Part shown: piece after piece, positions 36,370-57,637 of the stretch
Position numbering within the stretch: the stretch's first letter is position 1
Layout: every line of letters begins with the position of its first letter
DNA from: Escherichia phage KK4
Length of the DNA stretch: 64,000 nt
Sequence record: OR327750.1
Reading direction: 5' to 3' (one strand)
Translations under genes and position numbers: made by a program
The notes under the pieces: generated by a model
Database searches by the model: none
The model's input: the letters and a program-made list of their open reading frames with translations, nothing else
Told to the model about the DNA's origin: nothing

Positions 36370-36560
36370 TTTGAATGCTCTATAATTAATTTTAAAGCTT
36401 CTTCACTGACAAAAATTTCGTCAGGACCTTCTATAACTTCAACCATACGAAGTTGATTAGTTAAGAGCTCACATACGAGCTCCTTGTTATAATCTTTAAA
36501 TAGCTGGTCAATACGTTTCTTATGGGCTTTCTTGAGCTGACGTTTATTTAAACGAGCCAT
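36366..36560 (-). CDS. hypothetical protein (64 aa), soc.2 position
   Basis: track ORF; basic N-terminus. Confidence 0.5.
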   Translation of the reverse strand: MARLNKRQLKKAHKKRIDQLFKDYNKELVCELLTNQLRMVEVIEGPDEIFVSEEALKLIIEHSK

Positions 36561-37078
36561 TAATAGCCTCGGTCTTGACGAGCGAAGTTTTCAGCATTTT
36601 TCAGATAATAAAGTTTAAAGATTTCCTCAGCTGACATTCCAAGAGCAATGAATTTATTCATGAAAAAGTGAAATTGATCAATCAGTTCAAATTTAATTTC
36701 AAGTTGATCTTCAGGAGATAAATCTTGAATTTTCTTGGATTGCATTTCAGAATAACGTTTCTTCCAAGGTTTCCATACAGCAGAAGCTTCTTTTTCGCCA
36801 TTACTCATACCGCCAAGAGAAGTATATAACTCGCGGGTTTCATCTGCGATATAATCGTCTTGGTTTCGCAACCAAGCAAGAACTTCTCCTGCAGTTTCAA
36901 GTGAATCAGGATGACGATTTGTTTCTGGTTTATCATTAGCCAAACGAATCTGTAAATGCCGCTGCATGTCAAGCATAACCTGCAGTGGGTCAATATTGTG
37001 CATAATATTCTCAGCATATGCACGATTTGCTTTATCAACACCTTCAATCAAATGAGCACATTCATTAAAGTGAGCCAT
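36560..37078 (-). CDS. 56: dCTPase/dUTPase gp56
   Basis: MAHFNECAHLIEGVDKANRAYAEN...; ATG at 37076-37078. Confidence 0.9.
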   Translation of the reverse strand: MAHFNECAHLIEGVDKANRAYAENIMHNIDPLQVMLDMQRHLQIRLANDKPETNRHPDSLETAGEVLAWLRNQDDYIADETRELYTSLGGMSNGEKEASAVWKPWKKRYSEMQSKKIQDLSPEDQLEIKFELIDQFHFFMNKFIALGMSAEEIFKLYYLKNAENFARQDRGY

Positions 37079-37138: not shown

Positions 37139-38478
<1,340 letters not shown>

Positions 38479-42631: not shown

Positions 42632-42976
42632 TTAAAAGAATTTAAACTTTTTCTTTGACCTTTTATTAAATGCATCTTGTAGTTGCATTGTAATACATTT
42701 TTCTACATGAGGAGCTAACTCAGCTTTTCTTTCTTGGTCAAGAACAGCAAAGTCCATTACGACTTTTCCATCAACCCAATCTAATTTTGTCACATACACA
42801 ATGTGTGTAGAACCATCTTCTAGTTTAATGACAATCTCCTGGATAACATTTTCCATGGCAGATTTAATTATCTTAAGAGACTCATTAAAAAGACGTTCTT
42901 TTCTTTCTTCTTCCCCCTCCGAAGAGGGGGATTCGTCGATAATTTCTAGATCTAAATCTAAATCATCTTTATTCAT
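42632..42976 (-). CDS. 40: head vertex assembly chaperone gp40
   Basis: 114 aa from ATG at 42974-42976; position between uvsX and 41. Confidence 0.75.
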   Translation of the reverse strand: MNKDDLDLDLEIIDESPSSEGEEERKERLFNESLKIIKSAMENVIQEIVIKLEDGSTHIVYVTKLDWVDGKVVMDFAVLDQERKAELAPHVEKCITMQLQDAFNKRSKKKFKFF

Positions 42977-44150
42977 TAAATTCTTCCATATCACTTAACT
43001 GTTCGAGGTCAGTTTCTAAATCAGCAGCTGATTTACTTTTACTTTCTGGAGATTTAAATTTTTCAACCTTTGAGTTAATCAATTCATCAACTTCAGCTTC
43101 AACAATTTCATTACTATCAATAGCACCTAACTGATAAGCACGTTTAATAGCATCTCGGAATGGTTGATGCTTAAATAAAGGACCCCAGAATGTAGTGCAG
43201 TTGGTATCTTTTGCACGCCAAGATTTTTCTTCGCGAATCATCTCGCCGGTTTCTTCATCAAGAAATTCACGAGCATACCAACCATTTTTAGGTTTTACTA
43301 CAAATCCTAATTCTAGAGCCATATCTAACAATCCAGAATAAGGATCAATACCACCGTCAAATTTAACATCAATAAAGAATTTACTTTTTTCTTTAACGGT
43401 ACGAGATTTTTCTACATTTAGAACAAATTGATACCCCTGAAGATCAGAACCATCTTTAATCTGACGCTTACCGATAATGAATACAGTATCAGCCGAATAC
43501 ATTACGCCTGTACCACCTGTCATCACGGTTTTACTAAACATTTCAATTGTTTCAATTGTATGGTTAACCGCAACACATGGAATATTTTTAATGCTAAAGT
43601 AAGGAGTAACAATACGGAATAATGACTTCAGTGATTTAGCACGAGTCATATCTGCCACAGATTTTTCATTCAAGGCATCTTCCGTTTCTTTCTTAGAAGC
43701 CATATTACCGATTGAGTCGATGAATACAATAACTTTTTCACCGCGCTCAATAGCTTCAAGCTGATTCACCATATCAATTTTTAGCTGTTCAACTGACTGA
43801 ATTGGCGTATGAATTACTCGTTCTGGGTCAACCCCCATGGATCGCAAATAAGCTGGAGTAATACCAAATTCGCTATCATAGAATAGACAAACCGCGTCAG
43901 GATATTTGTTCAAATATGCCGCAACCATAGTCAAAGACATATTTGATTTAAAGTGTTTAGAAGGCCCTGCGAAAATAGTTAAACCAGACTGCATACCGCC
44001 ATCAATCGCACCAGAAATAGCAATATTAAGCATTGGAATTTTTGTACGAATTACATCCTTTTCATTAAAGAATTTAGATGTAGTCAGTTCAGCAGTCATT
44101 TTAGAAGTGGAAGCTTTAATCAAACGGGATTTTAAATCTGCAATAGACAT
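42969..44150 (-). CDS. uvsX: UvsX recombinase (RecA-like)
   Basis: 393 aa MSIADLKSRLIKASTSK...; Walker A GPSKHFKS; acidic C-terminus. Confidence 0.92.
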   Translation of the reverse strand: MSIADLKSRLIKASTSKMTAELTTSKFFNEKDVIRTKIPMLNIAISGAIDGGMQSGLTIFAGPSKHFKSNMSLTMVAAYLNKYPDAVCLFYDSEFGITPAYLRSMGVDPERVIHTPIQSVEQLKIDMVNQLEAIERGEKVIVFIDSIGNMASKKETEDALNEKSVADMTRAKSLKSLFRIVTPYFSIKNIPCVAVNHTIETIEMFSKTVMTGGTGVMYSADTVFIIGKRQIKDGSDLQGYQFVLNVEKSRTVKEKSKFFIDVKFDGGIDPYSGLLDMALELGFVVKPKNGWYAREFLDEETGEMIREEKSWRAKDTNCTTFWGPLFKHQPFRDAIKRAYQLGAIDSNEIVEAEVDELINSKVEKFKSPESKSKSAADLETDLEQLSDMEEFNE

Positions 44151-44227
44151 TCATTTTTTCCATAGGCATCATTATATTTTCCTCACTGGTTAAAGATAGA
44201 GTAATTATAACACAATAAATTTAGGCA

Positions 44228-45070
44228 TTAATCAACTGCTATTGGATGAATAGCATTAAACTTATGAAATGCTTCTGATTTTTCTTTACGCGAAACGCAC
44301 ATGCGAAGAACCTTTAATGGCTCGTCTTCTTCACCCAACGATTTTCGTTTTTCAATATTAGAAGTTTTCCAACGAGCTTGCTCTGGAAACTCTCTATTGA
44401 TTTGCTCAAGCGCTCTATTATGTTTAGAATTACTACGAATTGAACTACATCCACCGGGAGCGTGTGATTTTCCAGATACAACTAGATATTTGAACAATGC
44501 CAAATGCGGATAACCTTGATTAATTAAATTGAGAAATGCATACATATCTTCGCATAAATCAATTTTTCCATACCCAATTTGTTCTGTCGTAAGTTTTCCG
44601 AGGTCATACCATGTATTCGTGAATCCATATGAGTTTTCACGATAATTACCCCAAGATGAAGTAATTTTAAAAATTGGTAGACGAGCATGACCGTGATAAT
44701 ACCCGCAATCCATGGCATCTTCAACATATTGAATCAATTCATAGAACTGTTCACGAGTTAATTGATTAATTTTATCTACACGCCGTTTATCGTCTCTCTT
44801 TCGTATTGAACTCATACGAATAGTAGTATCATCATCAATCATCCAGATTCGTTGACCTGCATACATATCAGTAATTGCTTTACGAGTTCCAGCAATTCCG
44901 TTTACATCATCAGGAATAGTTATAATTTTAGCTCTAAACCCATAGGCATCATAATAAGCTTTTTCTTCATGTTCACGCACTACAATATGCGGTTCATAAT
45001 CAGTCGGAAACATATCAAGGGCAGAAACTGCCCCGACACGCTGATAACTTGGAATTACGAATTGAATCAT
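44228..45070 (-). CDS. putative GT-A glycosyltransferase at the beta-gt locus (candidate beta-glucosyl-HMC-alpha-glucosyltransferase)
   Basis: 280 aa; DxD-type motif WMIDDDTTI; not the 351-aa T4 beta-gt; ATG overlaps gene 42 stop. Confidence 0.55.
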   Translation of the reverse strand: MIQFVIPSYQRVGAVSALDMFPTDYEPHIVVREHEEKAYYDAYGFRAKIITIPDDVNGIAGTRKAITDMYAGQRIWMIDDDTTIRMSSIRKRDDKRRVDKINQLTREQFYELIQYVEDAMDCGYYHGHARLPIFKITSSWGNYRENSYGFTNTWYDLGKLTTEQIGYGKIDLCEDMYAFLNLINQGYPHLALFKYLVVSGKSHAPGGCSSIRSNSKHNRALEQINREFPEQARWKTSNIEKRKSLGEEDEPLKVLRMCVSRKEKSEAFHKFNAIHPIAVD

Positions 45071-45807
45071 TTCCACTCACCGTTATAATCTTTTTTCACA
45101 ATATGAGTTTCGCCAGTATTCCACCAATGATCAACCAAGTAAAAATGACGAGAATATACATGAAGACTTCCAACATTCCATATAATAGAACCTGCTTTAT
45201 ACTGACGAGTTGAATCGCCTGCATTCAAATCAGATACTAATTTATCTAGTACGTATTTTTGCCATGCATAATCATTGCGGAATCCGAAGACCACATCATT
45301 TGAGCGCATGCTTACTACTGCATTGACTTTCTTATCACGAATCAGGTACTGTACTGTATTAGTACACATGAAATCTGACATACCATCTTTATTGTAGTCA
45401 AATTGCATGGATGGACGAGTATAAATCATGATACCACGTCGAGAATCAGGATTTTGACCAAGTTCAGCTAAACACATATCATACTGGGCATAGTTATCTT
45501 CTGACCAAATAGCCCAACCATAATTCGAGTTAATTTCACCTTTAGAAGATGCTACTTGTTGCCAAATCTTCGGTGTTTCACCTGGAATATCTTTAACAAA
45601 CAAGCTTTTAGATTTATACCATTCAAGTTCACGCTGAATGTATTCATCATTAAGAGCGCCAAAAATAAACGGTTCATCTGCTACAAATGATGCGCCAATA
45701 ATTTCAATAGTTTTAACGCCAGTTTTATCAACTACGAAATCTTTTTCTTTTAATGCAAGCCCCAAATGAAGACGGATTTCTTCAACTGTCATAGAGTCAC
45801 TAATCAT
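45067..45807 (-). CDS. 42: dCMP hydroxymethylase gp42
   Basis: 246 aa MISDSMTVEEIRLHLGLALKEKDFVVDKTG... Confidence 0.93.
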   Translation of the reverse strand: MISDSMTVEEIRLHLGLALKEKDFVVDKTGVKTIEIIGASFVADEPFIFGALNDEYIQRELEWYKSKSLFVKDIPGETPKIWQQVASSKGEINSNYGWAIWSEDNYAQYDMCLAELGQNPDSRRGIMIYTRPSMQFDYNKDGMSDFMCTNTVQYLIRDKKVNAVVSMRSNDVVFGFRNDYAWQKYVLDKLVSDLNAGDSTRQYKAGSIIWNVGSLHVYSRHFYLVDHWWNTGETHIVKKDYNGEWK

Positions 45808-45814
45808 TTAAACC

Positions 45815-45964
45815 TCAATTGATACATTCATATTTAACTTGTAACAGTAATAAACCCCAACCTAAAATAATAGTTGGAATCATAAGAGGAACCGTTACAC
45901 TATAGTATATACTTATTATAACCATCAAGATTAAAAGCAATGCTGCTATAATTTTGCTTTTCAT
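45815..45964 (-). CDS. small membrane protein (49 aa) between 42 and imm
   Basis: hand-translated MKSKIIAALLLILMVIISIYYSVTVPLMIP...; ATGA overlap with imm stop. Confidence 0.4.
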   Translation of the reverse strand: MKSKIIAALLLILMVIISIYYSVTVPLMIPTIILGWGLLLLQVKYECIN

Positions 45965-46212
45965 TCCTTCTCTCTGATGATAATTACCTGATTTGGCTGT
46001 GCAGACTTTTTGGTTTCACCCGCAATTGACCAAATAAATGTAATAAACCAACCAATAATTGACCAGTTAAACAGCAAAGATGTGAAAAAGATTCCTACTG
46101 TCGATTTTGACCCACGCATCAAGGCGATAAACCATGGAAGCATGTATATAATAATAGCCAACACACCTGAAACTAAAACCATAAAAATTGAACCTGCTAC
46201 TAAAGTTTCCAT
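45961..46212 (-). CDS. imm: superinfection immunity protein Imm
   Basis: 83 aa METLVAGSIFMVLVSGVLAIIIYMLPWFIALMRG... Confidence 0.9.
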   Translation of the reverse strand: METLVAGSIFMVLVSGVLAIIIYMLPWFIALMRGSKSTVGIFFTSLLFNWSIIGWFITFIWSIAGETKKSAQPNQVIIIREKE

Positions 46213-46219
46213 GTTTTCC

Positions 46220-46600
46220 TCACTTAGTCAAATTTTTTACACATGAATTATAAGAATTCACTACATACTCCATCGGAGCATTTTTACCTGTACGCCACTG
46301 GTAATTATTAGCCCAATTTGCCCAAAGCTCGGCACAGTAGTTTTCAATTTTTTCTTCGCGCGTAATTACATCAGAATTACGATATGCTTGAGCAGATTCA
46401 TCTGGACGAATAGCTTCGTCAAAATTCGCCTGCATTTGTTCTACTGTTTGCTTTGGAGCTTCTTTATAACACTTGACATTAGGATTATAAAATTTGCTTG
46501 AACAGTTTACAATTTTTCCTACATCAGACTGATTTACTACCGGTCCTTGAGCTACACAACCAGTAAGACCTAATGCAATAACCAAAATAGCGATTTTCAT
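46220..46600 (-). CDS. putative lipoprotein (126 aa)
   Basis: ATG at 46598-46600 with GGAG SD; lipobox LTGC. Confidence 0.55.
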   Translation of the reverse strand: MKIAILVIALGLTGCVAQGPVVNQSDVGKIVNCSSKFYNPNVKCYKEAPKQTVEQMQANFDEAIRPDESAQAYRNSDVITREEKIENYCAELWANWANNYQWRTGKNAPMEYVVNSYNSCVKNLTK

Positions 46601-46634
46601 TTCATTCTCCAAATCCGTATCAGTTGATAGTTGT

Positions 46635-46664
46635 ATAGTACCATGGAAGAACATGGATGTAAAC
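46635..46664 (-). promoter_or_regulatory. early promoter cassette with stem-loop
   Basis: revcomp GTTTAC 46659-46664, TACTAT 46635-46640, CCATG..CATGG stem. Confidence 0.5.
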
Positions 46665-56434: not shown

Positions 56435-57637
56435 TTATTTTGTAATAATGTCAAACTGTTCTTTAAAGCAGAAGCTTGAATCTTGATGCTGATACAAAAA
56501 TTCATATGCTTTTTCTCGCTCACGGTCATAAAGAGCTCGATCAGATGACAATTCTTTAATACGTTCAAATGTTGATTCCATGTCATTTTCATCAAACCAA
56601 ATGATACCGCTATCATGCGAGGTCAAAGGAGTATTATCAACGCGGAATTTCAAATTATCACCCGTTGATTTCCAGAAAACAGGAATTGTACCACAAGCAC
56701 CTAATTCAAGATGAGTATATTCGAGTGAGCGTTGTAAGTATTTCTGGTTAAGTTTACTCAACTGATATCCAAAGCCAGATTTACTCATTCGTTCAAGCAT
56801 TTCACTATTAATATAACAATCTAGGATTTGTGCCGGTTGATTCGGCGCGAGATTCATTTTATCAATCTCACGATTACCGTAATATTCATACGGAATACCT
56901 TTTTCCTTAATTGCAATAAAAGCAGGGGAACGTTCAAGACCTTCCATTACAGTGGATTTACCGGCAGGTTTTAAGAATTTTTCGTGAAAATCAAACATCT
57001 GGTAAAAACCTTTCCATGTAGTCGTACGACCAATCCAACGGTTGATGTTCATGTTAATTTCAGAAACATCTTTCCAATAAGTTGACCGAACCTTCACAAT
57101 ATCCATAGGAGGCTGAAAGTTATATACTGTCGGTGCTTCTTCAATATCATCAAACAGAGAAACAGTTTCTGGATACCATTCTTTCATCAGAACTTTATTA
57201 AAATCACCATTATCAGAATGGCTAAAAATAACATCAGCTCGACGAACAGTTTCTTCTAATCCCAAATTTCGACGCAAAGAAAGAACAGAATGATCATGCT
57301 GATAAACTACAACACGAATAGAAGGTTTAATATTATCTAAAAGTTTTTTATAGTTATTAATCGTGGCTTCTTGAACGGAAGTAGCAGGAACAGAATTAAT
57401 AATTAAAATATCACAATCATTAATCAGTTTAAGTGCTTTATCGTATTCTTTAGCTAAAATAACTGGAATTGAAAATGATTTGTGGTCATGAGAACTTGTA
57501 CGAGTAAATGATTTATCTTTAGCATAAACCAAAGTTACTTCATGACCATTTTTAATAAACCAATCACGCTGCTCAAGAGAAAATTTAGTTACACCGCAAC
57601 CTTCAAGACCCCGAGCCATAAAAATACATACTTTCAT
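56435..57637 (-). CDS. a-gt: DNA alpha-glucosyltransferase
   Basis: 400 aa MKVCIFMARGLEGCGVTKFSLEQRDWFIKNGHEVTLVYAKDK... Confidence 0.93.
   Translation of the reverse strand: MKVCIFMARGLEGCGVTKFSLEQRDWFIKNGHEVTLVYAKDKSFTRTSSHDHKSFSIPVILAKEYDKALKLINDCDILIINSVPATSVQEATINNYKKLLDNIKPSIRVVVYQHDHSVLSLRRNLGLEETVRRADVIFSHSDNGDFNKVLMKEWYPETVSLFDDIEEAPTVYNFQPPMDIVKVRSTYWKDVSEINMNINRWIGRTTTWKGFYQMFDFHEKFLKPAGKSTVMEGLERSPAFIAIKEKGIPYEYYGNREIDKMNLAPNQPAQILDCYINSEMLERMSKSGFGYQLSKLNQKYLQRSLEYTHLELGACGTIPVFWKSTGDNLKFRVDNTPLTSHDSGIIWFDENDMESTFERIKELSSDRALYDREREKAYEFLYQHQDSSFCFKEQFDIITK

Follow-up and report, generated by a model that had tools for sequence, protein, structure and literature searches.

In phage T4 the region between the recombinase gene uvsX and gene 42 has the order uvsX - segA (221 aa) - b-gt (351 aa) - 42. 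Phages T2 and T6 have no b-gt; in these phages alpha-glucosyl-hmC receives another glucose, in beta linkage, from a second transferase and so becomes gentiobiosyl-hmC (PMC13160076, PMC11078745). The DNA of T2 contains ~70% alpha-glucosyl-hmC and ~5% gentiobiosyl-hmC and that of T6 ~3% and ~72%, respectively, with ~25% of the hmC left bare in both phages (PMC13160076, PMC11078745). Deletion of the T6 gene (ba-gt or g-gt) resulted in DNA with alpha-glucosyl-hmC only (PMC11078745, PMC13160076). The combination of an alpha-glucosyltransferase (alpha-GT) with a TAGT enzyme is the common pairing and the alpha-GT plus beta-GT of T4 the rare one (PMC13216743). Tequatrovirus phages of the Durham Collection carry alpha-GT and TAGT, the latter syntenic with the beta-GT of T4, and phages with this pair but no beta-GT contained hmC, alpha-glucosyl-hmC and gentiobiosyl-hmC and no beta-glucosyl-hmC according to HPLC/MS (PMC13390438).

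The DNA analyzed here is a stretch of 64,000 nucleotides from Escherichia phage KK4 (OR327750.1), to which we refer as the window. A sequence-only reading had described a single 280-aa ORF between uvsX and gene 42, with a WMIDDDTTI motif of the DxD type and the features of a GT-A glycosyltransferase; it had further noted the lack of a T4-like beta-gt sequence and of segA, and the presence of an intact a-gt gene elsewhere in the window. These claims held. The ORF lies on the minus strand between flanking genes that were identified with Pfam, the motif was found in its translation, and the a-gt gene is complete (Table 1). The reading frame is open from a GTG at 45076 and has an ATG at 45070 and its stop codon at 44228-44230; translation from the ATG gives a 280-aa protein with the N-terminus MIQFVIPSYQR....

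Table 1. Features of the ggt locus and of related genes in the window.
Feature	Position	Strand	Basis and remarks
dCTP pyrophosphatase (gp56 equivalent)	36560..37078	-	GADU22 annotation only (record 70376-70894, offset 33816)
dam-type adenine methyltransferase	37142-37918	-	100% amino-acid identity to Geo-group gene
Restriction-enzyme-like gene, 186 aa, directly after dam	37921-38478	-	100% identical to Geo_034
uvsX recombinase, downstream flank of ggt	42969..44150	-	Pfam T4_UVSX_C and RecA
Segment of 946 nt lacking T4 homology	44139..45084	.	blastn vs T4; T4 has a 1,941-nt segA + b-gt segment here
ggt-uvsX spacer, 77 nt	44151..44227	-	Alignment; same as the spacer of T2, no T4 counterpart
ggt / ba-gt / TAGT, beta-glucosyl-HMC-alpha-glucosyltransferase	44228..45070	-	ORF call; 280 aa plus stop codon
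WMIDDDTTI, residues 76-84	44819-44845	-	Located in ggt translation
D79-D80-D81 codons, DxD-type motif	44828..44836	-	Inside WMIDDDTTI, right after model strand beta-4
ATGA overlap of ggt start and gene 42 stop codons	45067..45070	-	Sequence; same in T2 and T6
Gene 42, dCMP hydroxymethylase	45067..45807	-	Pfam Thymidylat_synt, E 1.1e-15; so named in T2, T4 and T6
a-gt, DNA alpha-glucosyltransferase, 400 aa, intact	56435..57637	-	Pfam PF11440, 859.8 bits

The ORF very probably is the Tequatrovirus ggt gene (ba-gt, TAGT), the product of which attaches a second glucose to alpha-glucosyl-hmC to form gentiobiosyl-hmC. The surrounding 5 kb are 100% identical to the genome of Escherichia phage GADU22 (OQ944321.1), a Tequatrovirus obtained from the urine of a patient with a UTI, and the protein itself is 100% identical to GADU22 WIL00053.1, which is annotated as beta-glucosyl-HMC-alpha-glucosyl-transferase. 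A tblastn search of phage records with the protein gave homologs in 688 records, near full length in 684 of these. Over all 280 residues the identity is 96.8% to the T2 enzyme and ~96% to the T6 ortholog; both genes encode 280 aa, occupy the same position between uvsX and gene 42 and share the ATGA overlap with gene 42. Winkler and Rüger reportedly cloned the genes of T2 and T6 and determined their sequences in the early 1990s. The protein matched PHROG 842 (beta-glucosyl-HMC-alpha-glucosyltransferase) with an E-value of 5.9e-87, and scored 38.6 bits against Pfam PF20691 TAGT (gathering cut-off 27.5) over profile positions 2-205 of 205. PF20691 represents the TET-associated glycosyltransferases, and nine of the 11 homologs found carry a precomputed match to it. 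The setting is that of a ggt ortholog, i.e. placement between gene 42 and uvsX with an alpha-gt present and a beta-gt absent. What the present analysis shows directly is the identity of the gene, its family and synteny, the conservation of the motif and the class of fold. The gene as such is already known: it is annotated under the same name in GADU22, the same inference has been published, and the annotation is routine.

The genes that T4 has at this locus were searched for throughout the 64 kb. Searches by tblastn with the T4 b-gt and segA products gave only chance-level matches over the whole window (best E-values of 1.2 and 2.3, respectively). A direct blastp comparison of the ggt protein with T4 b-gt returned nothing better than E 4.2, and the PF09198 (T4 beta-glucosyltransferase) profile did not match the ggt protein at E ≤ 1. 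A segA-like ORF was not found between uvsX and gene 42, where ggt and uvsX are only 77 nt apart; in T4, segA abuts uvsX. In a blastn alignment with T4 the homology stops at window position 44138 (T4 locus 4556), 12 nt inside uvsX, and restarts at 45085 (T4 locus 6498), in the last 18 nt of gene 42. The b-gt gene of T4 (PF09198) thus sits where ggt does, between gene 42 and uvsX, and both enzymes use UDP-glucose as the donor to place a beta-linked glucose on modified phage DNA (PMC13216743). They differ in fold, which is GT-B for T4 b-gt and GT-A for ggt (model; PMC13216743), and in acceptor, which is bare hmC for the T4 enzyme and the glucose of alpha-glucosyl-hmC for ggt. Moreover, b-gt is accompanied by segA, a GIY-YIG homing endonuclease, whereas ggt of the window is not.

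Conserved residues were identified from an alignment of the ggt protein with nine to 10 homologs, ranging from 97% down to 28% identity. Down to 28% identity, all homologs in the alignment have D79, D80 and D81, and likewise I6, P7, S8, Y9 and R11 of the first strand and the G206-G207 pair, and the enzyme of the window retains every family-invariant residue, R11 included. An AlphaFold2 model built from the homolog alignment was of moderate confidence (mean pLDDT 69.7, pTM 0.71), with good scores for residues 1-80 (pLDDT 84-95) and poor ones (pLDDT < 50) for residues 126-151 and 194-211. In the model the DDD sequence at 79-81 directly follows strand 74-77 (beta-4), the place of the conserved DxD in GT-A enzymes, and the model matches their single Rossmann-like nucleotide-diphospho-sugar transferase fold. 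Foldseek matches of the model were modest, with E-values of 7e-4 or weaker and TM scores of 0.2-0.4. Our model agrees independently with a published AF3 model of T6 TAGT, for which a GT-A fold and a position as sister group of GT2 were described (PMC13216743). GT2-type GT-A enzymes such as TarS and TarP of S. aureus, BcsA, RmlT and GlfT2 share 9-16% sequence identity with ggt and act on teichoic acid or polysaccharide, unlike ggt with its DNA-linked glucose acceptor; the poorly modelled C-terminal half of ggt is without clear counterpart in these enzymes. A sequence search of the PDB with the ggt protein yielded chance matches only (E 1.5 or worse). Because no structure of the family is detectable by sequence, the roles of the DDD residues in binding metal and UDP-glucose are inferred from general GT-A enzymology. 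By the same analogy the enzyme presumably is metal-dependent and inverting, the latter fitting a beta-linked product. GT2-like GT-A enzymes are generally inverting.

These properties suggest the following pathway for DNA modification in this phage. The gp42 enzyme would make hm-dCMP, after which hmC would be built into the DNA. The putative dCTP pyrophosphatase, known from annotation, is part of the hmC pathway and excludes unmodified dCTP from phage DNA. The alpha-gt enzyme would add an alpha-linked glucose to approximately three quarters of the hmC, and ggt, judging from its orthologs, would transfer a second glucose from UDP-glucose onto the first one through a beta-1,6 linkage, giving gentiobiosyl-hmC. 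Since the phage is without beta-gt, no beta-glucosyl-hmC would be expected and about a quarter of the hmC should remain without glucose. Product chemistry and knockout phenotype are carried over from published orthologs that are 96-99% identical and should apply here by analogy.

It is highly improbable that ggt acts as a functional stand-in for T4 beta-gt, with direct beta-glucosylation of bare hmC and T4-like DNA as the outcome. The gene sits exactly at the T4 b-gt position, and a beta product would be expected either way from an enzyme of the generally inverting GT2-like GT-A type. The replacement reading is already contradicted, however, by published nucleoside analyses: phages with a 99.3% identical enzyme have no beta-glucosyl-hmC according to HPLC/MS and leave ~20-33% of their hmC bare (PMC13390438), and deletion of the T6 ortholog converts gentiobiosyl-hmC to alpha-glucosyl-hmC and not to bare hmC (PMC11078745, PMC13160076). 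The lack of sequence similarity between ggt and T4 b-gt also argues against it. The T2/T6-style modification that the sequence-only reading had predicted, with alpha-glucosyl and gentiobiosyl groups, is supported, both through orthology with the T2 gene and by analogy with the phages analyzed by HPLC/MS.

The ATGA overlap suggests translational coupling and co-transcription of ggt with gene 42, in which case ggt would be read from the gene 42 transcript. Scans of positions 43900-46300 for sigma-70 promoters (11 sites, 10.5 expected) and intrinsic terminators (one found, 1.2 expected) were at chance level, with no promoter above chance upstream of ggt; they give no grounds for a promoter or terminator dedicated to ggt. 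A hairpin at 45018-45034 was dismissed as it lies within coding sequence. The spacer between ggt and uvsX contains, just past the ggt stop codon, the sequence TGCCTAA followed after 11 nt by TATAAT. This resembles the T4 middle-promoter consensus and we take it to be a candidate MotA-type middle promoter for uvsX, a promoter type outside the scope of the sigma-70 scan.

Two further observations concern the other side of gene 42. Between gene 42 and imm there is a very hydrophobic 49-aa ORF (MKSKIIAALLLILMVIISIYY..., minus strand, 45815-45964) without a Pfam match. It is annotated in GADU22, Geo, Solly, EL, CP, TB37 and BGP, and the T2, T4 and T6 records have a gap of ~153 nt at its position. 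The ORF at 46220-46654 (minus strand) encodes 144 aa from its first ATG, compared to the 381-nt (126-aa) imm.1 in the GADU22, T2 and T6 records; the discrepancy is only a matter of start-codon choice.

The extent of gentiobiosylation was addressed by comparing the allele of the window with those of T2, T6 and six phages of the Durham Collection whose composition has been measured, nine sequences in total (Table 2). The Durham phages represent six of the 10 Tequatrovirus phages in that collection, the other four being NR1, QOTSP, Some and EH2.

Table 2. Residues of ggt at six positions, other allele features and published DNA composition.
Phage	Residues 89, 95, 97, 101, 202, 203	Other features	Composition
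Window	I K R I S H	Private S45F	
Geo, EL, BGP	I K R I S H	No private changes; all V50	hmC : alpha-glc : gentiobiosyl ~1:2:2
Solly, TB37	M R C V A Q	No private changes	~One third hmC, two thirds gentiobiosyl, trace alpha-glc
CP	M R C V A Q	V30A	As Solly
T6	M R C V A Q	TAG at codon 10, Y40N, D55G, R106H	72% gentiobiosyl
T2	M R C V A Q	R11H, P251S	5% gentiobiosyl

Gentiobiosyl-hmC contents anywhere between 5% and 72% fall under the term T2/T6-style, and the allele found here matches the intermediate Geo group. The TAGT enzymes of Geo, EL and BGP (OZ034685.1, OZ034682.1 and OZ035849.1) are 99.3% identical to that of the window and have the same haplotype; the window enzyme differs from them at two variable positions only (F45 instead of S and I50 instead of V). 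The S45F change is private to the window allele, and column 45 is variable in the family. The locus is laid out as in the window in all three phages, with the 150-nt ORF following gene 42. The ~1:2:2 ratio of hmC, alpha-glucosyl-hmC and gentiobiosyl-hmC was measured in their DNA (PMC13390438). The T2 and T6 genes have the M/R/C/V/A/Q haplotype, in contrast to I89/K95/R97/I101/S202/H203 in the window, which also is without the R11H of T2 and without the TAG at codon 10 in the T6 record. Since the window has the six-residue haplotype of the Geo group, our best guess is that gentiobiosylation would be partial and Geo-like (~40%, at ~1:2:2), rather than as in T2 (5%) or T6 (72%).

The dam-type gene upstream of ggt and the 186-aa gene that follows it are also those of Geo, EL and BGP. 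A dam gene together with a restriction enzyme-like gene marks the Geo group, the latter being exclusive to Geo, EL and BGP (PMC13390438). The 186-aa protein gave sub-threshold Pfam matches to two restriction endonucleases, DpnII (16.8 bits, cut-off 23) and BanI, and the two genes may form a phage-borne GATC methylase/nuclease pair. The label 'head outer capsid protein' given to the 186-aa gene in GADU22 looks like a mis-annotation.

Near-full conversion of alpha-glucosyl-hmC, as in T6 or Solly with gentiobiosylation of about two thirds of the cytosines, is possible though in our view rather unlikely. The window alpha-gt is 99% identical to those of T6 and Geo and 92% to that of Solly, the ggt enzyme is 96-97.5% identical to those of T6, Solly, CP and TB37, and the extent of modification may hinge on expression or timing and not on the six haplotype residues. 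However, the full haplotype is common to the window and the partial-conversion group and occurs in none of the full-conversion phages, and the dam and restriction-enzyme-like genes of the partial-conversion group are present in the window at 100% amino-acid identity. Clearly less probable is that ggt is as weakly active here as in T2, which would give DNA with essentially alpha-glucosyl-hmC and bare hmC. T2 has only ~5% gentiobiosyl-hmC with a full-length ggt, so an intact ORF is no guarantee of high modification (PMC13160076, PMC11078745), and the private S45F change would fit a reduced activity. Against this, all family-invariant residues are kept, R11 too, with H11 occurring only in T2 among the nine sequences, and the enzyme just two variable positions away supports ~40% gentiobiosyl-hmC in Geo, EL and BGP (PMC13390438). 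Partial, Geo-like conversion thus stays the composition that we predict.

Among the phages compared, the I89/K95/R97/I101/S202/H203 haplotype (Geo, EL and BGP, and also in the window) goes with partial conversion and M89/R95/C97/V101/A202/Q203 (Solly, CP, TB37 and T6) with near-complete conversion. Residues 89-101 form a hairpin just past the DDD sequence and residues 202-203 are in a flexible loop beside the invariant G206-G207; either region could plausibly contact the acceptor or the DNA. In the T2 record (MH751506.1) position 11 is H; it is R in the window, in T6, in the six Durham phages and in homologs down to 28% identity. The R11H change may relate to the low gentiobiosyl-hmC content of T2. 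We propose, with considerable doubt, that natural TAGT alleles set how much alpha-glucosyl-hmC becomes gentiobiosyl-hmC, with R11H perhaps behind the ~5% level of T2. Geo, EL and BGP share ~98.5% identity with one another, and the correlation between allele and composition is effectively one lineage versus several; other linked differences could be responsible.

The T6 record MH550421.1 has TAG at codon 10 of ggt; this codon is CAG in the window and CAA in T2. In this record the gene is annotated as a 261-aa ORF starting from M20, which is without the invariant N-terminal strand (I6-P7-S8-Y9-R11). The TAG may reflect a mutation in the stock or an error in sequencing, or it may be an amber codon that can be suppressed, with T6 being classically 72% gentiobiosylated. 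M20 as the true start of ggt was rejected: codon 10 is CAG or CAA in the window, T2 and the six Durham phages, and residues 1-11 at the N-terminus are the most conserved part of the family.

The host defences to which a T-even phage is open depend on the sugars on its hmC. The sequence-only reading had expected the modification type to affect sensitivity to glucose-dependent defences, and such effects are documented for Brig1, BapA/Brig3 and GmrSD/BrxU. In vitro, Brig1 excises alpha-glucosyl-hmC and does not excise gentiobiosyl-hmC. Gentiobiose cannot be stripped by BapA, Brig3 attacks the bare hmC that is left by phages without beta-gt, and GmrSD and BrxU cut DNA with any of these forms (PMC11078745, PMC13160076, PMC13216743, PMC13390438). 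Deletion of the T6 gene made the phage more sensitive to the Brig1 glycosylase and turned its DNA into a substrate of the BapA glucosidase (PMC11078745, PMC13160076). GADU22, which comes from a UTI, is cited in reviews of phage therapy, and a modification type that can be read from the genome is practically useful. The correlation between allele and extent of gentiobiosylation, together with the R11H change of T2, is the only part of this analysis that could lead to a new experiment.
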